Shown here piece after piece: positions 14,346 through 44,011 of a stretch of 64,000 nucleotides of DNA. The stretch is from Hypanus sabinus (Eukaryota). The stretch is taken from positions 134,354,001 through 134,418,000 of the forward strand of contig NC_082713.1 of assembly GCF_030144855.1 (NCBI RefSeq), read 5' to 3'. Made by a program: the position numbers and the translations under genes. The notes under the pieces were generated by a model. It saw only the letters and a list, made by a program, of their open reading frames with translations, made no database searches and was not told where the DNA came from. Positions within the stretch are counted from its first letter, which is position 1. Each line of letters starts with the position of its first letter.

Positions 14346-14983
14346 TCTTGGGTTTATGTGGTGAAGGTGCAAAATGGAGGCTGTGGCTTGCAAGATCTCA
14401 GGATGTTGGGTTGATGTAGTGAACTTGTGTTGCTGGAAATGTCCTTTTTTGAATGGCTAAAGGGAGGTTTAAAGGAAATGAGAATGACAATGTTGCTGGG
14501 GGGGGGGCGTGGTTATTAATCAAAAGACACAAACATTTGGTAATTGGCAAAAGAACCAAGAGTAACATGAGACATTACATGGGGGGTTTGTGGAAGCTGA
14601 ACTAATGACATTTAATTGAGAACTGGAGGAGTCCTTGAAGGGAGAATAATTACAAGGTGGTGGGGAAAGAACAGGATTCTGGGATTGTTGGACAACTCTT
14701 TCAAGGAGCTAGTATGAGTCCCATGGTATGAGTGGCTAACAGTTACTGCTGAAGTTTCAAGTCAAAGTTCTGGTATACCTAGCCATCAAAGTGCCTGAGA
14801 TTAAATGCTTCTCCCTGAGCACAATATTGAGCAATATTGTTCAAATATTGTAATATATATTTTTAAAGAACCAACAAAGCAAAATCAGCATTAAGTAAAT
14901 GATGACTCTTACTTGAGAATTTTGTTTCTGCAATGTATAAAAGTAGACCATTAACGTTTTTCTCACGACTGTTCCTCTGGCAG

Positions 14984-15799
14984 GTTGCTTCCCTCGGAGT
15001 CACCACCTTCACTCTCTGCGCGCTGTGCATCGACAGGTTCCGAGCGGCCACCAACGTGCAGATGTACTACGAGATGATTGAGAACTGCTCGTCGACGGCA
15101 GCCAAGCTGGCTGTGATCTGGGTGGGCGCCATGCTGCTGGCGCTTCCTGAGGTCGCCCTTCGGCAGCTGTTAACTGAGGAGATCGCCTCCTCCTCGGCTA
15201 TCGTGGACCGCTGCATTGTGAGCATATCTCCCAAGCTGCCAGACTCCATTTACGTGCTGGCACTTACGTACGACAGCGCCAGAATGTGGTGGTACTTCGG
15301 CTGCTACTTCTGCCTGCCCACGCTGTTCACCATCGGGAGTTCCATTGTGACTGCAAGGAAAATCAGGAAGGCGGAGAAGTCCTGTGCCAGAGGAAATAAG
15401 CGTCAAATTCAACTCGAAGGCCAGATGAACTGCACCGTGGTGGCGCTGACCATTCTCTATGGCTTCTGCATCATCCCTGAAAACATCTGCAACATTGTGA
15501 CTGCTTACATGGCCACTGGGGTCTCCCAGCAGACGGTGGACCTTCTTCAGCTCATCAGCCAGTTCCTCTTGTTCTTTAAGTCCTGCGTGACCCCGGTGAT
15601 CCTGTTCTGCCTCTGTAAGCCCTTCAGCCGTGCCTTCCTGGACTGCTGCTGCTGCTGCTGTGAGGAATGTGGCCCCAAGTCATCCACTGTGGCCAGTGAC
15701 GACAATGACAACGAGTTTACCACCGAGCTCGAGCTTTCACCATTCAGCACGATACGGCGGGAGATGTCCACCTACACGTCTGTGGCCACACACTGTTGA
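14984..15799 (+). CDS. GPR37: GPR37 (prosaposin receptor / Pael-R, endothelin-B-receptor-like GPCR), last coding exon: TM3-TM7 and C-tail
   Basis: The translation [38 protein letters not shown]...[14 protein letters not shown]...CCCCCCEEC...[26 protein letters not shown] matches the vertebrate GPR37 sequence as I recall it. It follows a pyrimidine-rich tract and CAG acceptor (14981-14983), phase 0. The ORF-track ATG at 14933 is intronic. Confidence 0.96.
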
Positions 15800-21804: not shown

Positions 21805-22117
21805 CAATGTATGAAACGTATAAAATTCTAAAGGGATTGCATGATGCAGGAAGGTTGTTTCCAATGTTGGGGAAGTCCAGAACGAGGGGTCACAGTTTAA
21901 GGATAAAGGGGAAGCTTTTTAGGACCAAGATGAGGAAAAACTTCTTCACACAGAGTGGTGAATCTGTGGAATTCTCTGCCACAGGAAACAGTTGAGGCCG
22001 GTTCATTGGCTATATTTAAGAAGAAGTTAGATATGGCCCTTGTGGCTAAAGGGATCGGGGGTATGGAGAGAAAGCAGGTACAGGGTTTTGAATTGGATGA
22101 TCAGCCATGATCATACT
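21805..22117 (+). mobile_element. CR1 3' fragment; its tail continues at 26497-26567 after the Gypsy insertion
   Basis: YETYKILKGL...SRTRGHSLRIKG...RKNFFTQ; the tail gatcagccatgatcatact|gaatggtggtgcaggctc is split by the LTR element. Confidence 0.85.
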
Positions 22118-22314
22118 TGTGGTGAACTACATATACCTGTCTAGACACACCCCTCTGCTGACTGGTCCTGTGGGTCCTGCCACAGACCCCTGTATAAAGG
22201 CAGTTGGAGGCACTGCTCCTCCCTCAGTCTCCAGGATGTTGTGTGGTGGTCTCTTGCAGCTAATAAAAGCCTATCGTTCGCCTCCCATCTCCGAGAGTTA
22301 TTGATGGTGCATCA
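22118..22314 (+). repeat. 5' LTR of the Gypsy element (197 bp; TATA-like TATAAA ~22193, AATAAA 22262-22267)
   Basis: Direct repeat of 26285-26491 with TGT...TCA termini. Confidence 0.93.
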
Positions 22315-22339
22315 ATGCTATTAGCTGCAATTTTAAAAC

Positions 22340-23770
22340 ATGGAGAGCATTTTACGACCAGAGAAATTGGACATTGATCCTCGATCTCCCGAAGCCATTG
22401 CCTTTGAACTCTGGCTTGCATGTTTCCAATCGTACCTGGAAGAGATTCACGTGACTGAGCCTGCTATCATGCACAGAGTCCTCCTCTCCAGGGTCAGTCC
22501 GTGGGTGTACTCCCTAATCAGGGACCTGCCGACCTACCAAGGGGCACTGGACGCCCTCAAAAGACAGTACCTGCGGCGGGTGAACACCATCTACGCAAGA
22601 CATTGCTTAGCGATGCAGCGGCAGCGGGCCGGAGAGTCGAGCGCTGAGTTTGTCCAAGCCCTACAGACACTCATGCGGGCCTGCGACTGCAGGGGACTGA
22701 CGGCGAAACAGCATGCGGAGCTCCTGGTACGAGACGCCTTTGATACGGGGATCAGGTCAGTGTATGTGTGCCAGCGGCTGCTGGAAAATGCTGATCTTAC
22801 CTTACGCTCGGCGATCGAGATGGCCGACATGCTGGAGGCTGCTCTGCACAACGCTGACACTGTCCAGCCACGCAATCTCCCGCCGGTCCCATTGACGCTG
22901 CAGACCCCGACACCCGCCGGTGAATCGACCACAGCTGCTGCCACTCGTGAGTCCGTGAACTCCCCGCAACCCGCCAGCGAATCGACCATGGCTGCTGCCA
23001 GTCGCGAGCCCGTGAATTCTCCGCAATCGATCACGGCTTCTGCCAGTCGCAAGTCTGCGCAGTGTTACTTCTGCGGACTCGAAAAGCACCCCCGAAAACG
23101 CTGCCCGGCCCGAGAAGCTACCTTCTCCGGCTGCAGAAAGAAGGGCCACTTCACCAAGGCCTGTAAGTCTAAACCACGGGCGGGGTCAAGCAGCGCCGCG
23201 TGTGAGGCATGGGGGCGGCCATCTTTGTCGGCGCCACCACGCCCCGCCTCCAACCCACGGGTGCTTACCAGGCACCAAGACGGCGATTCAACTCTGGCCT
23301 CCGTAACCCTCGACCAAAGCGCTCTACACCAGCTTGCAAGGTCAATGATGGACATCCTGGTGGAGGGGCACAGGACTAGCTGCCTGTTTGACACGGGCAG
23401 CACTGAGAGTTTTATTCACCCGGACACGGTGCAACGCTGCGGACTCGTGACACAGCTGGTAAGCCGGAGGGTCACCATGGCTTCTGGATCGCATTCCACA
23501 GACATCCGGGGGGGCTGTGTAGCGACATTGGTGCTGCAGGGCACAGAATATCGGAACTTTGTGTTACTGGTCATGCCTCAACTATGTGCCCCTGTGCTAT
23601 TGGGGCTTGACTTCCAGAGCCACCTGAAAAGTGTGACAATGGAGTATGACAGGCCCCTCCCACCAATCACTGTCAGAAATCCTCAGTTTTGTGGGACTTC
23701 ATCATATACCCACACACACACACCAACCCACACATCCCACCCAACACCATGCCAACGGCTGTGCTACTGA
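22340..23770 (+). pseudogene. Gypsy gag-protease region
   Basis: Capsid-like N-terminus, zinc knuckles (CYFCGLEKHPRKRC; degenerate second SGCRKKGHFTKAC), aspartic protease LFDTGS and LLGLDF. The frame shifts to pol in the CA-rich tract ~23700-23760. Confidence 0.88.
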
Positions 23771-26219
23771 CACCACTTGCAGCCTCTCCACCCTCAAGAT
23801 CCCTCCCCCACCGCTGTTCACCAGTCTGACCCCCGACTGTAAACCTGTGGCAACTAAAAGCAGGCGGTACAGCGCGGGGGACAGGGCCTTTATTCAGTCG
23901 GAGGTGCAGCGGCTGCTCAGGGAGGGGATCATTGAGCCAAGCACAAGTCCTTGGAGGGTCCAGACGGTCATTGTTCAGACAGGGCAGAAAAATAGGATGG
24001 TCGTGGACTATAGCCAGACCATCAATGGGTTCACGCAGCTTGACACTTACCCCCTACCCTGCATCGCGGATATGGTCAATCAGATAGCTCAGTACAAGGT
24101 GTACTCGACCATAGACCTGAAATCCGCTTACCATCAGCTCCCCATCCGCCCGGAGGACCGCCCCTACAGTGCCTTCGAAGTGGGCAGCAGGCTCTATCAC
24201 TTCCTGCGCATCCCCTTCAGTGTCACGAATGGTGTCTCTGTCTTCCAGAGGGAAATAGACCGGATAATGGACCAGTGCCAACTGAAGGCCATGTTCCCAT
24301 ATCTGGATAACATCACCATCTGCAGTCACAACTGGCAGGATCACGACACTAACCTCCAACGATTTTTCCAAGCGGCCAAGGCTCTTAACCTCACCTATAA
24401 CAGGGACAAGTGTGTGTTCGGAACCACCCGACTTGCTATCCTTGGGTATGTTGTGGAGAACGGGGTCATTGGCCCTGACCCCAACCGTATGTGCCCCCTG
24501 TTGGAATTCCACCCTCAGAGCCCTCAAACGGTGCCTGGGCTTCTTTTCCTATTATGCCCAATGGGTCCCTCTCTACGCAGACAAGGCTCGCCCCCGGTCA
24601 AGTCCACCGCATTTCCCCTCTCAGCCAAGGCCCACGCGGCCTTCAGCTGCATTAAAGGGGACATTACCAAAGCAACGATGCATGCAGTGGACGAGACTAT
24701 TCCCTTCCAAGTAGAGAGTGACGCCTCCGACTTCGCGCTGGCTGATACCCTCAATCAGGCAGTAAGGCTGGCAGCATTCTTCTCTCGTACCCTTCAAGGC
24801 CCTGAAATTCGGCACTCCACGGCGGAGAAAGAAGACCAGGCCATAGTGGAAGCTATTAGGCACTGGAGGCACTATCTCGCCGGCAAAAGGTTCACCTTGC
24901 TGACCGACCAGCGCTCAGTTGTGTTCATGTTCAGCCACCAACAGCGGGGCAAAATCAAAAATGATAAAATTTTGTGGTGGAGAATGGAACTCTCCACCTA
25001 CAACTTTGATATCCTGTACCGGCCTGGAAGACTCAATAAGCCCCCTGATGCCCTATCACGGGGAGCATGTGCCAGCACACAGCTCCACCGGCTATACTCC
25101 CTCCATGCACATCTTTGCCACCCAGGGGTCACCCAATTTTACCATTTCATGAAAGCCCGGAACCTGCCTTACTCCCTTGAGGAAATCAGGACGACCACCA
25201 GGGACTGCCAAGTCTGCGCTGAGTGAAAACCGCACTTCTACCATCCTGAAAAAGCACAACTTATCAAGGTCACCCACCCTTTTGAGTGACTAAGTGTTGA
25301 CCTTAAGGGCCCCCTTCCCTCCACCGACCGCAATGTCTACTTTCTCAACATAATCGACGAGTACTCGCGGTTCCCTTTGCCAGCCCCTGCCCCGATACCA
25401 CTGCTACATCCGTCTTAAAAGCCCTGCGCCAGCTCTTCACTCTGTTCAAATATCCCTGCTATATCCACAGTGACAAAGGGTCCTCATTTATGAGTGACGA
25501 GCTGCGCCAGTACCTGCTGGCTCGGGGTATTGCTACTAGTAGGACCACGAGCTATAATCCCCGGGGGAATGGATAGGTGGAGAGGGAGAATGCCACTGTG
25601 TGGAAGGCCACACTTTTAGCCCTTAGGTCAAAGGGGTTGCCGGTCTCTCGCTGGCAGGAGGTCCTCCCTGAGACACTCCACTCCATCCGCTCCCTGTTAT
25701 GCACGTCCACCAATGCCACCCCTCATGAGCGACTCTTTTCTTTTCCCAGGAAGTCTGCCACTGGGACCACCCTACCGGCTTGGCTGACGACCCCCGGAAA
25801 CATACGAGGAGCAATAAATACTCCCCGATGGTCGAGAGGGTTCACCTAATTCATGCGAATCCCCAGTATGCCTACGTGGTCTTACCTGATGGGTGGGAGG
25901 ACATGGTCTCCATCCGCAACCTGGCACCCGCAGGAGCACCAGACCCCTACCCCGAACACTCCACGGTGACTATGAACCCCGTACCCACCGAGGTGTATAC
26001 CCACGAGACACCACACACACCAAACCCTACACAGACTCCTCACGACACTCCCATACCAGGTGCCACACACACGCATGAGGGATTACTGACACCTCAAGTC
26101 AGGCCGGAACCAGCACAACCACCGTCTCCGGTGCAATCACCACCGGCACTGGTGCAATCACAGCCGGTGCTACGTAGATCGCAGCGACAGATTTGACCAC
26201 CTGATAGACTTAACCTGTA
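23646..26219 (+). pseudogene. Gypsy pol (RT, RNase H, integrase), disrupted
   Basis: RT motifs RMVVDY, IDLKSAYHQ and YLDN (catalytic YxDD mutated); RNase H ESDASD and LLTDQRS; integrase HHCC (HAHLCHPG...CQVC) followed by a stop at 25224-25226; the core (IIDEYSR, IHSDKG, ERENA) is frameshifted; the tail is LRRSQRQI*PPDRLNL. Confidence 0.9.
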
Positions 26220-26284
26220 AATATACTTGTAAGAAACATCACCCCATGGGGACTCTCTTTTAAAACAAAGGGGGGGGGGGTGAA

Positions 26285-26491
26285 TGTGGTGAACTACATA
26301 TACCTGTCTGGACACGCCCCTCTGCTGACTGGTCCTGTGGCTCCTCCCACTGACCCCTGTATAAAGGCGATTGGAGGCACTGCTCCTCCCTCAGTCTCCA
26401 GGATGTTGTGTGGTGGTCTCTTGCTGCTAATCGTGGTCTCTTGCAGCTTATTGTTCGCCTCCCATCTCCGAGAGTTATTGATGGTGCATCA
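26285..26491 (+). repeat. 3' LTR of the Gypsy element (207 bp; an internal duplication has removed AATAAA)
   Basis: Follows the PPT aaaacaaaggggggggggg; about 10 substitutions plus one indel relative to the 5' LTR. Confidence 0.93.
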
Positions 26492-27415
26492 ATACTGAAT
26501 GGTGGTGCAGGCTCAAAGGGCTGAATGGCCTACTCCTGCACCTATTTTCTATGTTTCAATGTTTCTAGTCTCTGTTGTAATGTAGAGAACATGAATAACC
26601 CAAGGAAGTGTAACTTTACACTGAATTGTTAAGTGTTTGAGAAAATCGGGGGATTGTAGAGGCTAGAATTTGGAGTCAAAAAGAAACTGCCAGAAGAACT
26701 CAGTGAGCCAGGCAACATTTGTTGGGGAAACGGTATTATTGATAGGCCCTGATCAAGATCTCAACCCAAAATATTGACAAAGCGTTTTCCTCTTCTCCCC
26801 AACCACCAACAGTTGCTGCTCAGTGCCCTGAATTCCTCAAGCAGTTTGTGGGGGTTTTTTGCTCCTAATTTCCACATTCTTTTGAATATGTATGCTTTCA
26901 TTGTACCAATCATTATAATTTTGGACTCACTCAGGTCAGTATCCAAAGATATGAGCTGCTAAGTTGAAAATCTACTTCAGCTAAAGTATGAAGGAGGTAT
27001 AATAGGATATGCTAAGCCTGGTTTTGCAATAAGGTTCGTGATGCGTCATATTGATGTTTCCTCCAAGTGTTCGGTATCTAATTCTTCAGTTAAATACTAT
27101 TCAGTACTTGTGTCGCAGGTGATACAAACATCATTGGACAGTGAGGTTAGAATAGCAGTACTACAGGAAAAATATATTGTTTGCAAAGGAATGGAGTATA
27201 AAAACAGAGAACTCTTTGTATAGATGTACAAGGTCTTGGCAAGATCAAATTTGAAACTGGTAATATCTAAGGAATGAAGCACAGAAATTGGAGCAATTCA
27301 GAGAAGGTTTATTATCTTGATTCTAAAATTGAACTGACATTTTATGAGAAAAGATTGGGCAGATTGGATCTATGCTGCATGAAGTATAGAAATAAGTGAG
27401 GAGACCTTACTAAAC

Positions 27416-28272
27416 TGTTACGAACCCCGTAACTGGGTCACTTACCAGCAAAGATGGAGATGTCCATTGAAGTCTGATGATACTATTTTTAACAGTATTT
27501 ATTAGTAAAAATACACAAAAATACTATCAATGCAAATATACAGATAATATACGTCATCAATACTAAATCTAAAAGTGCAAGTATAATAATAATCAATAAG
27601 AAATAAGCTCTATCGTTGTCTAGGGGATAATGTATTGTCCGATGGAAATATAAAAGTCACTCAGTTCATGCAGGCTGCAGCCGTTGGGGACCGCTGTGTT
27701 GCAATTGTTGGAGAGAGAGAGAGATTTGGAGAAAAACTTGCCGGCTTTCCTTTTATGATTTCGATCAGTCGTTGTTGTGGCCTTTCACTTGTGGCATCTC
27801 CTTTAGCAAAACCGTTCTTCTGTGGTGAGCCCGCCACCCAGACAAGGGAGGACGCACACGAGCCCCCACCGGTTGTCGCTATTATACACTGTCATGGAAT
27901 CTCTAGCATTTCTCCTAGTGCATCTAAAGGGGTTGTTCCCCAGACCCTCTTTTATCCTTACTCACAGGGTCTCAGATGTCAATCAGGTTGGGATGATGCA
28001 ATCCCTCAACCAGACCACTCTGGTTGTCCCCTGAGGGGTTTCAATGAATAGTACAGTACTCAATACACAATTCCGTCTCCAAGAGACAATGGCCGTTATC
28101 AGTGGTTCCGTTCCGCTGATGTCAGGACACATTCCAAACCTTGTGTATTCTGGATGTCTCTCTCTCATTTCCTGGGTCTCAGACCCGAAATAATAGTGAT
28201 CTTGCGATTCTCAAAAAGGAGGGGGCGACTTTGTACCCTTCGGCCCCTCAGAGTTGCTTCACATTCATAACA
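27416..28272 (-). repeat. 3' LTR of the SCAN-Gypsy element
   Basis: TGTTA...TAACA inverted termini; adjacent to the PPT. Confidence 0.92.
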
Positions 28273-29131
28273 CCCCCTTCCTTCTAAGATTTTTGCCACA
28301 GGTAAAAATTAATTAATACAGAGTCTTACAGGATTTCAGAATCTAACACAATACAAAAGAGTTTTTTTTCATTACAGAGTAATACAGTTATACATTCAAT
28401 TCAGCATCTAAACAGTTAGCGATTACATTGTCACTTCCTTTAATATCTTAACATCTTGTACCTTAATAAAGTCTTGTAGCATCAGACTCCAATTTAATAA
28501 CTACCTATTTTTATTCCTTTTCCAAACAAAAACTAAAGAGTTGCGATCTTAGCTTACGTGTATATTACAAAAGTTCATGCAAATACTAATCTTTATTTTA
28601 CTTTCAAACTTAACAGCCAATCTTCCATGAGGTTGTCTTTATTAGTTACATGCTTTGTCGAAATTCCTTAAAACCGGATCCTGTTATTTAAAGTGGCATC
28701 CCGTCAACCCTCACCCCTTTTCCAGTTAATTCCTATGTGGTTAACTTGTATACTGGTGTGGAATAGGCTTTTGCATGCTCCTTTCATAGGAGTTATTTTA
28801 TCAACAATGTTTTCCAAACGTAGCCCATTGGCTGAATCTCCACACAATTCTTTATTTTTAAGCAAGTCGTTAGTTTTATCTTCAGGACCCTTCATTCTAT
28901 TGGTTGTCAGTTTAAAATCTGCAAGCGATCCCTCTTTGTCCAAACAGCATTTCAAATTCTGCCTCTTCACAGCACACTCTTGAATAACAATAGCATGTGG
29001 GGCACCTTTACATTCCAAATCAACCTGTAATTGATTCACAGGCACTGTGTTAACAAGCCATTGTCCCTTCAGCCTGGTCACTGCTTCTGACACCAATCCA
29101 GACTTTAAATTTTCTTCATTCAAGTTAGGAA

Positions 29132-31594
29132 CTACACTTTTATTTCAATAATAATATTCACCTCATCACCTTTTATCTCCTCACTAACTTTTAACACACC
29201 TTGGAACACAAACAACTGGGAATTCTCACTTCCCACGAGTACCAAGGTTAACCCTTTCTTCACTGAACCAAGTCCATCTGACCCACAAGGACTGCATTCC
29301 TTTTCAACCGAATCAAATACCTCAGACTTTTTCTGAGCTCCATTACTAGGTTCAGTACCATGTGCATCCACATCTTGAACACACTCAAATGGGACATCTG
29401 CCTCTTCCAGGCTTTCAATACCCGTACCCTTTTCAAATTCTAAGTTTCCCTGATCCTCCCAGTTACTCTCTGGGCAACTCCCTTCTGGAGTAAACTCAAC
29501 CCTGCAGGCTGAAACAACCTCATCTGCCAACCCAGCAGACTTTTTCAAGGTAATGGCATCCTTTTCATCTAGGACTGCCCTCATTTCATTATCGGGAAAA
29601 CCTTTAGAATCTTCAACTTCTTCAAACAGTTCTGTCAAACCAGACAGATCATCCATGTCCAACCCTGGACCTTCTAACAGCCTTATCTGTTTCTCATTTT
29701 TACTCCGTACCTCTATAAATTTCCTCATGGCTAAGGGCAGGTCTACCTCCTCTCCCTTACTCTTTTCCACCTCCCTATTCTCCATTTTACCACCCTCTAA
29801 CCCCTCTTGGTACAGGGTCGGTAAAAACGTCTCGGCCAAATCGATACTGGCCTCTTTCTCAGCTGCCTTTCTCGACATGCTGCGAGTGGTCGCGCAGGCG
29901 GGATAGATCTCGGAATCTAGGGGCGGGTCCTCAACACTTACAGGCTGGCTTGTCAGCTCCATGGCCGACCAAATTTCACCACCAGCTAAACCGTTACCCA
30001 GAAGGATGCCTACATCAGTTCTCGGAAATTCTGATCGCACCCCTATTTCAACTGGTCCAGATACCAGCTCACAATTTATAATGATCCTATGCAAAGGCAC
30101 AGCTTCTGTCCCTTTTCCTATGCCTCTCAAAGCCACCTCTCCTGTCTCAGGACCAAAATCTTGTACCTTACTGAGAATCAATGACTGCTCAGCTCCAGTA
30201 TCTCTCCAGATCCGCACTGGAACTGGTGTGTCTCCCTCTTTCACAGACACGGTTCCTTCTGAAATAAATTTCTCAGGCCCCTCTCATATTCTGTCTACCT
30301 GGGGCTTTCTCGTCGATTTACTGATCACCACAACACATCCTGTAGGGACTGCTGCTTTCCCTTTTCCTGTCTCCTTCCTCGGAGCAAGGCACTTAGATGC
30401 AATATAACCCACCTTTCCACAATTAAAACAGGTCAAGCCAGGACATCTCCTGCCGTCTTGCCTTTCCTCCTCCTTATTTTTATCACTAGCTCCCGGCTGG
30501 ATCTCTGCCTCAGCCGGCGGGCTTTCTCTACCATTCCCACGGTCTTTCTGGTAACTTTTATTCGAGGAAAACTTTGTCTTGTGGGTTAGGGCATATTCAT
30601 CTGCGAACCTAGCAAATTCAGAGATGGTCTTATTCGGCTTCTCGTTCAAATACATCCGGATATCATCCAAAACGCAACCTTTAAATTCCTCAATCAGAAT
30701 TAACTCCCTGAGATGCCAAAAATCCTGTTCCACCATTTCTGCTGCACACCAACGATCCAAGAGCACACCCTTCTCATAGGCAAACTCTGCATACGTCTGA
30801 TTCCACCCTTTCTTTAAATTTCTGAACTTTTGTCTATAGGCCTCAGGTACCAATTCGTAGGCCAGAAGAATGGCCTCTTTTACTTCCTCATAATTCTCAG
30901 ACTCTTCCTCCTCCACGGACAATGCCGCATATGCCCGTTGTGCCTTCCCTTTTAACACGCTTTGTAACAATGCCACCCACTGATCTCTGGGCCACTTCTG
31001 ACTCACTGCCACCTTTTCAAAATGCAAGAAATAACTATCAACATCCGTCTCCTCGAACGGAGGTACTAACCTGAACTCCCGACTAACATTAAATCTCTCC
31101 TCTCGGTCTGACCCTTGAGCTCTTCACTCTTGCCTTAACTTCTCCAGGTCCATCTCATGTTGCCTCTGTTTCTCCTTCTCCCTTTGGTTCTCAGCTCTTT
31201 CCCTCTCCTTCTCAGCTCTTTTCTTCTCCTTTTCAGCTGCTTCCAGCTGTTTTAACTTAATTTCATGTTCCCTCTGCTTCTCAGCTCTTTCCTGCTCTTT
31301 TTCAGCTGCTTCCAGCTGTTTTAACTTAATTTCATGTTCCAACCTTAATTTCTCCAACTCTAATTAAGCCGTCCCACTGGTTGGTACCTTTTCAGGGATA
31401 TTTTCCAATACCTCAGCCGAAAACATGTTCTTCACAATATAATACTGAGTTATGGCCCTGCGCACCTCCCAGTTTTTCTTTGACAACCTCACCTCTGCAA
31501 GATTTAGTCCTTTCGCAATATTTATCAAGTCCGACTTTGTGGCAGCCTCAAGCGCCTCCAGAGTCGGGTTTTCTATGAATTTGTCTACATACAT
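29132..31594 (-). pseudogene. gag (coiled coil + SCAN/capsid + zinc knuckle) - protease reading frame with three in-frame premature stops
   Basis: ORFs 31594-31364, 31357-31124, 31027-30284 and 30250-29132 share one frame. SCAN-like PEAYRQKFR...LRELILIEEF; knuckle CFNCGKVGYIASKC (His to Tyr); protease RDTGAEQS...ILLGNGL; followed by an acidic tail. Confidence 0.87.
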
Positions 31595-31684
31595 CTTTGC
31601 TGGTTTCCCGTCTGGTTACCCGTGCAACCAGATCCAAGTTTGGACTTAAAAGCCCGATTCACTGGCCCTCCATTTTGGTATCAA

Positions 31685-31703
31685 ATCTCGAGACGAGGCC
31701 CCA
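31685..31703 (-). promoter_or_regulatory. Primer-binding site, tRNA-Pro-like
   Basis: The minus strand reads TGGGGCCTCGTCTCGAGAT, close to the canonical tRNA-Pro PBS TGGGGGCTCGTCCGGGAT, 3 nt from the LTR end. Confidence 0.8.
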
Positions 31704-31706
31704 CGT

Positions 31707-32573
31707 TGGTACGAACCCCGTAACTGGGTCACTTACCAGCAAAAATGGAGACGTCCGTTGAAGTCTGATGGTACTATTTTTAACAGTATTTATTAGTAAA
31801 AATACACAAAAATAATATCAATGCAAATATAAAGATAATATACGTCATCAATACTAAATCTAAAAGTGTGGGTACAATAATAATCAATAAGAAATAAGCT
31901 CTATCGTTGTCTAGGGGATAATATATTGTCCGATGGAAATATAAAGTTCACTCAGTTCATGCAGGCTGCAGCCGTTGGGGACTGCTGGGTTTCAATTGTT
32001 GGAGAGAGAGAGAGATTTGGAGAAAAACTTGCCAGCTTTCCTTTTATGATTTCGATCCGTCAGGTGTCTCGTTGTCGTGGCCTTTCACTTGTGGCCTCTC
32101 CTTTAGCAAAACTGTTCTTCCGTGATGAGCCCGCCATCCAGGCAAGGGAGAACGCACACGAGCCCCCACCGGCTGTTGCTATTAAATGCTGTCACGGAAT
32201 CTCTAGCGTTTCTCCCAGTGCATCTAAAGGGGCTGTTCCCCAGACCCCTTTTTTATCCTTACTCACGGGGTCTCAGATGTCAATCAGGTTGGGATGATGC
32301 AATCCCTCAACTAGACCACTCTGGTTGTTCCCTGAGGGACTTCAATGATTAGTACAGTACTCAATACACAATTTCGTCTCCAACAGACAATGACCGTTAT
32401 CAGTGGCTCCATTCCACTGAGGCCAGGACACATTCCAAACCTTGTGTATTCCGTGTGTCTCTCTCTCATTTCCTGGGTCCCAGACCCGAATTAATAGCGA
32501 TCTTGCGATTCTCAAAAAGGAAGGGGCGACTTTGTACCCTTCGGCCCCTCAGAGTTGCTTTACATTCACAACA
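31707..32573 (-). repeat. 5' LTR of the SCAN-Gypsy element
   Basis: Direct repeat of 27416-28272, adjacent to the PBS. Confidence 0.92.
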
Positions 32574-39926: not shown

Positions 39927-40597
39927 TGTGCTGTCTTTACGACAGTTATTTAGTTTATAATATTTTCGCTTAGTAATTCATTCGATAGTATTTTCTAGTT
40001 AGAATTAGAAGTGTTTAAAGTATATTCATTGCATGTAAAATATATCGGCATGCGATGACATCACATCCGGTTTCGCCGCGTCTTGTGGGAAAGTACCGGT
40101 TTGAAATTAACGCGAGGGTGGGGGCTCACCACGAGGCACACCTGAGCAGAAGTCGTTTTGCAGGCATGAGAAATCACAGTGAGAGCAACGCTGTAAGTTA
40201 ATAGATAATCAATATATTGAACTAAGATGTTAATGCCGATCCTGTTAGAAGTAACGACGGTCGATAATGTTTATGCTTTCGTTAGTTAAAGAGTTGCGGA
40301 TAGTTTGCATTGAAGTGTATTTAAAGTAGTCAATGGAGCAGGTAAACTCTGCCTGTATACGGCACCTTAGTGTAATGTAGTTATAGTCACCTTTGCAAGT
40401 ATTTACAATTGAAATGTGATATTAAGGAAGGAACAAATACTGTATCAATCTTGTATTGTTTTATCAACAGTTTTCACCATATGTTAATGTGAAGAGTGAA
40501 CAGTAAATGATTATTCTTACTGCGATCTGGTCTCATTGACTGGTTTATCTCGACGTTGAATTCGGCGTTATTAGTACACGCGAAGGAGAACGTTACA
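39927..40597 (+). repeat. 5' LTR of the BEL/Pao element
   Basis: TGT...ACA termini; near-identical to 44070-44740. Confidence 0.95.
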
Positions 40598-40635
40598 GTG
40601 AAAAAGCGGCATTATCAGGTGTTTCAAGTGCTGCA

Positions 40636-42192
40636 ATGTCAGCTCGATCCAGCATCAAGTCGACGCCGCCCAGCGACAAGGGCGGTAAACCGACATCAAG
40701 TAAGCCCACCCAGGCGTTATCAGGTGTTCCAAGTGCTGCAATGTCAGCTCGATTCAGCATCAAGTCGACGCCGCCCAGCGACAAGGGCAGTAGAGCGACA
40801 TCAAGTAAGTCCACCCAGGCAAGAGCCAAGGCAGAAGCCGCCAAGGTGCGTCTGCGTTACGCCAGACAAGAAGCAGTTTTGAAAATGAAACAGGCCACCA
40901 GAGAAGCCGAAATCCAGAAAGAAAAGGCTGCCAGAAAAGCCGAAATCCAGAAAGAAAAGGCTGCCAGAGAAGTCGAAAAGGCCGCCAGAGAAGCCGAAAC
41001 CCAGAAGGAATGGGCCGCCAGAGAAGCCGAAACCCAGAAGGAATGGGACACCCGAGAAGCCGAAACCCAGTTGGAAATGGCAAAAATATCGACAGAGTTG
41101 CAAGTGCTGCAGCTAGAAAGAGAAGAAGAAGCTGCCATGGCGGAAGCAGAGTACATAGAAGAAGCTGAAGGGTCGCGTGATCTGACCGAAGCAAGATCTA
41201 CTTTAGAAAGGACCAGACTGGAACGCACAAGCGACTATGTACAATCTCAAATAGACAGGCAGGCTCGTCTCCCCTCTCCATACGTATTCGATAACTTCCC
41301 CAGCTACGAGGAACCTCAGAGAGTCACGATTGCATCACATCCATACGAGGAAGAAAATTTACCCTTACGACTCTGTGATGGAGTCAAGAATGAAAGAGCT
41401 GACAACCGATACTTCTCGACACCAAACTTACAAAGTTTGATGCGAAGAGACGCGGAGGTCGAATCCAGGATGGCAAATTCCATGAGAAACGTGCGCTCTC
41501 AGTCATATAGGCGCCAACGTACTTCTCCAGCCCGCATGCCGCTTACAGCCGATCCCACGATGCAGTATTTAGCACGACAGGATCTCGTCACTTTGGGACT
41601 GTACCAGTTTGACGATAAACCTGAAAATTACCGTGCATGGTACTCCACATTCACCAACGCGATCGACGGAGTCCAGCTCAGTGCAACCCAAAGGTTGGAC
41701 CTTATGGCGAAATGGCTGGGGAAAGAATCACGCGACCAGGTGAGACGCATACGTTCAGTGTACATCAACAAACCCGAACTAGCCTTAAGCAAAGCGTGGG
41801 AGAGAATTCGGGAGGACTATGGGTCCCCCGAAGCTATTGAAGCGGCGCTATATCGACGTCTGGAAAACTTTCCTAAGGTGTCAGCCAAAGATCACATTAA
41901 GTTAAGAGAATTCGGAGATTTACTCATGGAGATCCAAGGCGCCAAAGAAGATGGCTACTCAGCTGGTCTAGTATACCTAGATACTCCATTCGGGATTAGA
42001 CAAGTCGTGGACAAACTTCCTTTTGGGCTGCAGGACAGGTGGCTGTCCGTTGCTTTAGATTACAAGGAAGAGCACGATGATCGATTTCCTCCCTTTGAGC
42101 TCCTCGCTAGGTTTGTGTGCAGGGAGGCGAAGAAGCGAAACGACCCTAGCCTCGCGGGTCCAGGAAGCAGTACAATTTACACCGCCAAGTAG
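40636..42192 (+). CDS. BEL/Pao Gag (coiled coil + DUF1759-like capsid), 518-aa open frame
   Basis: FDDKPENYRAWYSTF, WERIREDYGSPE, VDKLPFGLQDRW and FPPFELLARFV motifs are typical of BEL gag. It ends at an apparent frameshift ~42180-42192. Confidence 0.8.
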   Translation: MSARSSIKSTPPSDKGGKPTSSKPTQALSGVPSAAMSARFSIKSTPPSDKGSRATSSKSTQARAKAEAAKVRLRYARQEAVLKMKQATREAEIQKEKAARKAEIQKEKAAREVEKAAREAETQKEWAAREAETQKEWDTREAETQLEMAKISTELQVLQLEREEEAAMAEAEYIEEAEGSRDLTEARSTLERTRLERTSDYVQSQIDRQARLPSPYVFDNFPSYEEPQRVTIASHPYEEENLPLRLCDGVKNERADNRYFSTPNLQSLMRRDAEVESRMANSMRNVRSQSYRRQRTSPARMPLTADPTMQYLARQDLVTLGLYQFDDKPENYRAWYSTFTNAIDGVQLSATQRLDLMAKWLGKESRDQVRRIRSVYINKPELALSKAWERIREDYGSPEAIEAALYRRLENFPKVSAKDHIKLREFGDLLMEIQGAKEDGYSAGLVYLDTPFGIRQVVDKLPFGLQDRWLSVALDYKEEHDDRFPPFELLARFVCREAKKRNDPSLAGPGSSTIYTAK

Positions 42193-44011
42193 ATCCTCTT
42201 CGAATGTTTTCAACATTGATAAACCCGTCTCAGTGCTCAAGACCGAAGCCCTTACAACTAGCAACGACCCTAGCAAGTATTGTCCATTGCATAACAAACC
42301 TCACCCCCTCAAAGGATGCAGAATGTTTAGGGAAAAACCCCTTGAAGAGAGGACGGCCCTTCTCAAGGAGAAAAGAATATGTTTTAGATGCTGTTCCTCA
42401 ACCTCTCACCTCACCAGAGAGTGTACGATCGCCGTGAAGTGTCCGGAATGTGATAGCCCAGATCACGTCGGGGCCATGCATCCCGACCTGTCACCGCAAA
42501 CCGACGATGCTCCTTCACCCCCACAACAGGACGGCGGGGAGGGAGAGGCTCACCCCAGGACAACAGTTGTCAGCACGAACTGTACAGAAGTTTGCGGTCA
42601 AGCTCAGTCAAGTCGTTCTTGTTCCAAGATCTGCCTCACTAAGGTGTACCCTAAAGGAGCCAAAGACAAGGCCATCAAAGCCTATGTGATTCTGGACGAT
42701 CAGAGCAATTGCTCACTAGTCAGTCCAGAGTTCTTTAAATTGTTCAACATTGAGAGTGAGCAGTTCCCATACTACCTCAAAACTTGCTCAGGCAACATGG
42801 AAACCCAAGGAAGGAAGGCAGAAGGCATCCAGATCGAGTCCCTGGATGGTAAAGTTGTCATCTGTCTCCCTCCGCTCTTAGAGTGCGATGGAATCATGAA
42901 TAACCGCACTGGGATCCCGACACCAAGTGCGGTGCTACACCAGCCACATCTCCACCACATCGCCAAACACATCCCAGAACTGGATCCAAAAGTGGAAATA
43001 CTCCTGCTATTAGGAAGAGATGTTATCCAGGTACACAAGGTTAGGCAGCAGGTCAATGGACCACTCGACGCCCCCTTCGCGCAACGTCTGGATCTGGGCT
43101 GGGTGGTGATAGGAGAGGTGTGCCCCGGTGTCGTACACAAACCGATGGTTAACACACTCAAGACCAATGTGCTAGAGAGTGGCCGCCATTCAATCTTTCA
43201 ACCCTGCCCGAGTGCCCCGTGCATTAAGGAAGCACAACAAGACATTACCAAGCGTAAAGTAACCGACGAGACGCTAGGTCAGTCAGTTTTCGTTCAAACC
43301 GAGCACGGAAACAAACTTGCACAATCAGCTCAAGATACCATTTCTTTAAAAACCAAAGACACCAAGGTCTTCAGAGATGAAGCAAATAATGGGGTTGCCC
43401 CATTGCCTTTCAGAGAACCACGCCAGCGCTCACCAGATAACAAAGAGCAGGCAGTCAAATGGTTCACGTCCTTACGGAAAACCCGGAAAAGGAAACCTGA
43501 GATGCAGCAACGCACCCAATTGGCCCACGAGGTACTGTGCACCCTAATGGCAGAGGTCACAGCCATTATAAACGCACAATCACTCCTACTTGTGTCTTCT
43601 GACCCAGAAAACCCCTTCATACTTTCACCATCAACGCTCCTTACGCAGAAGGCAGGAGCTCCCCCTCCACCAGGAGACTTCTCAGACAAGGATTTGTACA
43701 CAAAGCAATGGAGACAAGTCCAGGCTCTGGCAAATCAGTTCTGGTCTCGCTGGAGACAAAAATATCTACCTTTGTTGCAACAGAGACAAAAGTGGACAGA
43801 ACCCCGCAGAAATCTTCAAGTTGGAGACTTAGTCCTGCTCAGGGACAAGCAAATCGCCCGCAACAGCTGGCCAACGGCCAGAATCACTGCTACATTCCCT
43901 AGCGGGGATGGACATGTCAGGAAGATCGAATTGAAGACTACCAACCAAGGCGATGCGAAAATTTACCAAGGGCCAGTTACAGAAGTTATTCTACTTCTAC
44001 CCAATGACTGA
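42193..44011 (+). CDS. BEL/Pao zinc knuckles + aspartic protease fused in frame to the integrase C-terminus (DUF5641-like); RT, RNase H and IN core absent
   Basis: Part of ORF 42077-44011: CPLHNKPHPLKGC, CFRCCSSTSHLTREC, CPECDSPDH, ILDDQSN and LGWVVIG, then LPFR...PDNKEQA...KPEMQQ joined directly to LCTLMAEVTAIIN...QFWSRWRQKYLPLLQQRQKW. Confidence 0.8.

Follow-up and report, generated by a model that had tools for sequence, protein, structure and literature searches.

The window analysed here, a 64,000-nt stretch of the Hypanus sabinus genome (contig NC_082713.1, positions 134,354,001 to 134,418,000 of the forward strand), contains at 22118-26491 a decayed 4.4-kb Gypsy element without a chromodomain. 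It is flanked by two matching copies of a 5-bp TSD, ATACT, at 22113-22117 on the left and 26492-26496 on the right, and all of its own features lie on the plus strand. The 5' LTR (197 nt, 22118-22314) has TG..CA ends, which are identical in 29 other copies, and is a direct repeat of the 207-nt 3' LTR (26285-26491). Between the two lie a gag-protease frame with two zinc knuckles and an aspartyl protease (22340-23770), a frame for the reverse transcriptase (RT) and RNase H (23637-25226), and a polypurine tract (PPT; 26267-26280); in the window copy, the gag-protease frame is broken, as is the integrase region downstream of the RNase H. The LTRs, the TSD, the PPT and the domain order PR-RT-RH-IN place the element in Ty3/gypsy, and its best match among solved structures is Ty3 Gag-Pol. 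Within the 5' LTR, a TATA box (TATAAA, 22193-22198) precedes an initiator-like TCAGT (22224-22228), the predicted start of the RNA. Elsewhere in the window there are a BEL/Pao-type element at 40540-44011 (matches to DUF1759 and DUF5641), a frame matching a rhodopsin-family 7TM receptor at 14906-15799 and, at 27416-32526, long direct repeats 4.3 kb apart that surround minus-strand frames, one with a match to the SCAN domain; the last of these is likely to be another LTR element.

The sequence-only reading of this element had drawn attention to the bases behind the 5' LTR: a TGG tRNA-type primer-binding site (PBS) is absent, and 22319-22330 is instead the exact reverse complement of 22254-22265 inside the LTR, a site that begins 61 nt beyond the start of the TATA box and overlaps an AATAAA at 22262-22267. 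Each of these observations was borne out, as was the LTR end at 22314, which is given by the direct repeat with the 3' LTR and recurs in the other copies. The complementarity is, moreover, stronger than first noted: comparison with other copies identifies the 12 nt as the remnant of a 15-16-nt complement, and the complete pairing as that of the primer-binding position, 22316-22330, with 22254-22268, the window copy having decayed at 22317-22318. This helix is termed P1; its 5' arm, which covaries with the PBS and encloses the AATAAA, is the putative self-primer site, and it is followed by RCC(T) at 22269-22272, which in predicted folds opens a second helix, P2. When the LTR was dinucleotide-shuffled, a match of at least 12 nt to the 25 bases that follow it arose in only 1 of 20 000 shuffles, and the P1 stem was present in all nine folds tried for the window copy. 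In the 3' LTR, a tandem duplication over the site (26410-26450) has placed two differing site variants in tandem and removed the AATAAA. Three subfamilies (L095, L102 and L111) were seemingly born from similar duplications ending at the site, which may be a hot spot for strand switching.

A search of the 4.04-Gb genome with the LTR and leader as query returned 4225 candidates, of which 40 were scored and 30 fetched. A perfect 15-16-nt complement, starting 1 nt past the CA that ends the LTR, is found in 17 of the 29 fetched copies other than the window element, and a TGG after the LTR in none of the 29. Forty further elements have several types of site, most with a PBS to match. A pattern with four free positions in each arm found 2713 junctions in the genome (control, 0); the first 100 of these, all on one contig, fall into six sequence types, and 94 are perfectly complementary (shuffle control: mean 61.8, maximum 73 in 10 000 shuffles), a count that, because the subfamilies are related, corresponds to about five independent compensatory changes and not to 94. 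Among the 20 of these junctions with a non-majority site, 18 are perfect. Covariation between the two arms, which the sequence-only reading had named as a check on its proposal, is thus present across six types within one genome, and it recurs in the distant families described below. For rare mutations at two invariant positions of the site, the PBS was compensated in none of the 35 and none of the 63 copies concerned, so that none of these 98 had undergone one-step rewriting of the PBS, a comparison of low power in which most of the mutations are probably post-insertion.

The spacing of the signals is informative about where the site is anchored. From TATAAA to TCAGT it is 31-32 nt across subfamilies, even though the intervening sequence varies; the distance from TCAGT to the site ranges from 21 to 61 nt, whereas that from the site to the LTR end is near-constant at ~46-49 nt; the site therefore keeps its distance from the LTR end rather than from the predicted cap. 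Its position away from the cap had been pointed out from the window alone, and both the fixed spacing between TATA box and initiator and the fold-back ends near the initiator (see below) agree with this. As a separate observation, three junctions (L205-L207; G000:C1:64884388-64892975) are spaced by 4255 and 4255 nt and constitute a head-to-tail array of elements.

Relatives of the Gag protein number 1334 among representatives at 50% identity, and those with named hosts come from rays, sharks, Ciona, Styela, Apostichopus, Macrobrachium, Trichinella, Trichuris, Trichobilharzia, Acropora, Oculina, Actinostola and Xenia. The 86 distant loci that we compared derive from metagenome and genome contigs; 49 of them show the region upstream of gag and form 30 families, while the other 37 lack this region and were left unscored. 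In a blind stem scan, with each family represented by its best member (a slight favour to families with several members), 27 of the 30 families have a stem of 10-18 nt with their own LTR at the PBS position, compared with 0.6% of 900 shuffles; the three families without one are L168, L172 and L176. The 3' arm starts 1 nt past the CA in 21 of the 27, and in those loci that have both LTRs with clean ends it begins directly behind the LTR, a TGG PBS being absent from these pairs. An LTR complement of at least 10 nt lying 0-5 nt behind the 5' LTR, the operational test for self-priming in PMC6317226, is accordingly found here. The arm sequences differ between families, without a TGG at the PBS position in any of the 27, and nearly all of them end in AAA. 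In 20 of the 27 families, RCC comes directly after the arm, and in 18 of these 20 (3.5 expected) it has a partner within the short P1 loop (21-87 nt), giving a second helix, P2, stacked on the first.

A(A/T)TAAA lies inside the measured arm in 14 of the 27 families; the remaining arms include TTTAAA, GTTAAA, TGAAAA and CATAAA, and four loci (L112, L115, L179 and L195) have a canonical poly(A) signal in the loop. As the canonical hexamer is in the arm of only these 14, priming would be the conserved role of the helix and occlusion of the poly(A) signal a secondary one. The sequence-only reading had envisaged one fold-back serving both purposes: its priming part is supported, whereas occlusion is possible and is likely to be a side role in some families. 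Among the distant loci, six bacterial genome-bin contigs (L192-L197) bear this animal retrotransposon, L193 and L195 with both LTRs and the PBS complement; these are likely to represent host DNA inside the bins. Viral contigs gave 65 matches to the pattern, none of them a relative.

The RT was placed in a quick tree of 45 rows, with seven rows from the same genome (six SH3_Tf2-1 elements and L318) as the outgroup. A clade of 38 (SH-aLRT 100) unites the window element with the distant loci and the named proteins, on a long branch apart from the SH3_Tf2-1 elements of the same genome, to which the RT identity of its members is 27-31% (27-32% when the tRNA-primed L318 is included). A chromodomain, noted from the outset as missing from the window element, is absent from four polyproteins of the clade and from Ciona COS41.3, and is present in the control L315; the Tf2-type SH3 domain is likewise absent from clade members. 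An origin of self-priming independent of Tf1/sushi is likely, on a tree that has few outgroups. COS41.3 itself (CAB06047.1), a protein of 1209 aa, shares 43% identity across 1197 aa, a stretch that spans Gag to integrase, and is nested within the RT clade of the window element (SH-aLRT 100). COS41.3 is probably Cigr-1, its 1209 aa agreeing with the 3630-bp ORF of the latter; Mag and CsRn1 were also considered as candidate groups. The Cigr-1 clade resembles that of the window element in having a single gag-pol frame of ~1200-1300 aa; PMC6238403 lists it in Ciona and molluscs and makes no mention of a PBS. Saci-2/lennie was rejected as a match, given the tRNA-Leu PBS and 4-bp TSD reported in PMC4558846. 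Of the two controls from the same genome, L318 has a TGG PBS and a 4-bp TSD, and L315 an 11-nt complement to its own LTR ~200 nt from the LTR end.

In LTR elements, the 3' end of the primer sets the end of U5, so that the primer pairs just past the CA. Here this position pairs, family after family, with the element's own LTR only, which argues for self-priming; moreover, no fixed tRNA could match all of the dozens of different PBS sequences, and the best match of the PBS among 18 distinct host tRNA sequences (a partial set) is 6 nt. The comparisons establish that the covarying PBS-LTR helix is real and clade-wide, and we regard some form of priming by the element's own RNA as very probable. 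The tRNA-independent self-priming suggested by the sequence-only reading is thus strongly supported at the level of sequence comparison, namely by the position of the complement, its covariation within the genome, its presence in 27 of 30 distant families and the fold-back copies.

The following mechanism would account for these features. The RNA would start at the initiator, ~30-60 nt upstream of the site, and its 5' leader would fold back such that the site, which lies in the R region, pairs with the PBS (P1) and RCC opens P2. A cut inside the A-run or immediately behind it, at AAA|RCC (AAA|GCC in the window copy), would be made, probably by the element's own RNase H, and would leave a capped 5' fragment of ~45-75 nt with a free 3'-OH. 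From there, the RT would copy ~46 nt of U5 as far as the cut, and the short strong-stop DNA would jump to the 3' copy of R, into the stretch that runs from the A-run to the poly(A) site. In those families where arm and poly(A) signal overlap, the same helix could hide the signal in the 5' LTR only. That the primer is such a 5' fragment has, in our estimation, about an even chance of being correct.

Self-priming is known from several systems. It has been reviewed for the Tf1/sushi chromoviruses, plant Tcn1 and the plant copia lineage TAR (PMC6317226), and self-primed Ty3/gypsy elements include Tf1/Tf2, Tj1 (PMC4600332), Tosmo and the Tf1/sushi chromoviruses, plant Tcn1 among them; further background is given in PMC6934838, PMC12471100, PMC3670739, PMC2774666 and PMC13524379. 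Tf1 primes with the first 11 nt of its RNA, which RNase H cuts from a three-duplex leader (PMC7175516, bioRxiv 10.1101/2022.12.06.519325), whereas here 21-61 nt separate the predicted start from the site, which has an A-run at its end and in many cases overlaps the poly(A) signal, with a pairing of 10-18 nt and a loop of 21-87 nt. The leader of Tf1 is a three-duplex 'pretzel'; the conserved second helix of the present clade has its partner within the loop. Unlike the Tf1/sushi elements, the clade has neither a chromodomain nor a Tf2-type SH3 domain, and its RT is on a separate branch. TAR (Houba/Osr-1), for which self-priming is also predicted from a complement of at least 10 nt at 0-5 nt behind the 5' LTR (PMC6317226), is a Ty1/copia lineage of plants, and thus belongs to another superfamily and another kingdom. 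The Conserved Hairpin Site of the fungal GalEa copia elements is also a hairpin at the PBS position in the place of a tRNA PBS; according to PMC5445492, however, both of its arms are downstream of the LTR and no LTR complement was found there. Finally, the polyA hairpin of HIV-1 likewise holds AAUAAA in a helix (PMC2645353), but this hairpin occurs at both ends of the RNA, whereas the partner here is outside the LTR, so that only the 5' copy pairs locally.

A further line of evidence is provided by fold-back copies, in which the PBS continues into a reverse-complemented copy of the LTR sequence that precedes the site. They were found as 4 of 153 matches examined, and a direct pattern yielded 294 (control, 0). 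Of the 90 fold-backs examined, 59 have an extension as far as the U3 start, 15 have one that continues into the PPT, 4 have one that stops near the initiator A and 12 have one that ends elsewhere; the class ending at the U3 start is to be read with the proviso that self-folding of a plus-strand strong-stop DNA with the PBS at its end can produce it whatever the primer. Among the 16 extensions that do not reach the LTR start, 4 end 1-3 nt from the initiator A (6-nt window, P ~0.003) and 7 lie within -3 to +6 of it, the latter window having been picked post hoc. On the U5 side, 28 of the 90 have full LTRs and 62 partial ones; the partial copies end in U5 (24), at the junction (8) or within the site (17), 49 together, as opposed to further upstream (12) or at the cap (1), although microhomology at the jump blurs these ends and may inflate the within-site class. 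These copies show that site and PBS meet during replication, and they suggest that the RNA has its 5' end at the initiator, 30-60 nt upstream of the primer end and thus unlike Tf1, and that copying of the template mostly halts at the A-run, as would be expected from a cut there. Several related insertions deserve mention. Six (L332, L328, L377, L393, L397 and L405) end in LTR, PBS and inverted U3-R, with the inverted U3 end as their right end, and L332 is a mini-element of ~400 bp composed solely of these parts; six others (L336, L339, L341, L344, L350 and L352) resemble solo LTRs with an inverted U5 piece at the AAA|GCC junction. L075, a candidate inverted loop, was rejected, being an ordinary copy whose match lies on the opposite strand.

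The fold-backs do not all point to the 5' fragment. The primer might instead be the site as present in the 3' R: the genomic RNA itself, or another one packaged with it, would have its 3' end cut or trimmed to the A-run, and this end would then pair with the PBS. The 15 fold-backs that pass through U3 into the PPT and internal 3' sequence imply that 3' copies of the site engage the PBS too, and the 59 that reach the U3 start are compatible with this. In four copies (L032, L036, L037 and L237), two of them with intact TSDs, the two LTRs differ at subfamily-diagnostic positions of the site and the PBS agrees with the 3' and not the 5' LTR, a pattern that suggests intermolecular plus-strand transfer; L223 and L244, however, show the reverse. 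A crude linkage analysis also favours an uncut template, in that the cap-to-site segment tracks gag (partial r 0.65) and not U3 (-0.08), partial correlations that are biased by the longer gag segment. Under a strict setting, copy painting placed four switches within the LTR, and among the 87 copies of the youngest type, which form a ladder, there were no informative recombinants. Against a 3' primer, the local 5' helix with its loop of at most 87 nt should form first, some fold-backs do end at the cap, and an uncut template would accumulate cap ends, which are seen in only 1 of the 62 partial U5-side copies. We consider this alternative possible but rather doubtful.

Alternatively, a separate short RNA, transcribed from an LTR promoter and either terminating at the 5' LTR or derived from a solo LTR, could be trimmed to the A-run and bind the PBS in trans. 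The thousands of LTR copies are a possible source of such an RNA, which would fit with a site that overlaps the poly(A) signal and with the cap-ending fold-backs. It nonetheless predicts strong-stop DNA extending to the cap, which the single cap end hardly matches, and it leaves the second helix beside the arm unexplained; we judge it improbable. The helix could also serve mainly to hide the 5' poly(A) signal, with a host RNA (a tRNA fragment or other) as primer. Structural control of AAUAAA has a precedent in HIV-1 (PMC2645353), and the arm covers A(A/T)TAAA in the ray subfamilies as well as in those 14 distant families. Yet 13 of the 27 have no canonical hexamer in the measured arm, four loci carry one in the loop, the PBS varies by family and subfamily as a fixed host primer would forbid, and the partial tRNA set offers no match beyond 6 nt; this explanation is likewise improbable. 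Chance complementarity or a functionless local inversion, for which solely the decay of the window copy speaks, is refuted by the covariation across families as well as by the shuffle tests and the 94 perfect junctions in 100, and we attach practically no probability to it.

Returning to priming by a cut 5' fragment, the most complete form of the proposal, in which tRNA-free priming arose separately from that of Tf1 in a Gypsy lineage found across animals, with an RNA cut at its own poly(A) signal as a new kind of primer, is advanced tentatively and is somewhat unlikely to hold in every part. No account of self-priming in the clade of the window element was found in the literature searched, a search to which subscription journals, Repbase, GyDB and the original Cigr-1 paper were external; the reviews consulted list it for the Tf1/sushi chromoviruses and one plant copia lineage only. 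Its signature is now seen in a lineage without a chromodomain that has named relatives in cnidarians, a trematode, nematodes, a prawn, a sea cucumber, tunicates, sharks and rays, with thousands of copies of such elements in one vertebrate genome, which suggests that tRNA-free priming is common in animals. For annotation, the signature can be written as CA, one base and TTTA..., pairing with NNNAAA|RCC. Elements primed in this way would presumably escape silencing by 3' tRNA fragments. The helix also offers a short RNA substrate for the question of how RNase H cuts RNA-RNA duplexes, and for that of whether hairpin priming came before tRNA priming, which was raised in PMC3601003. The same genome appears to house a second self-priming lineage: five sushi-like elements (L310, L313, L315, L316 and L319) have a non-TGG PBS and an 8-11-nt complement to the LTR.
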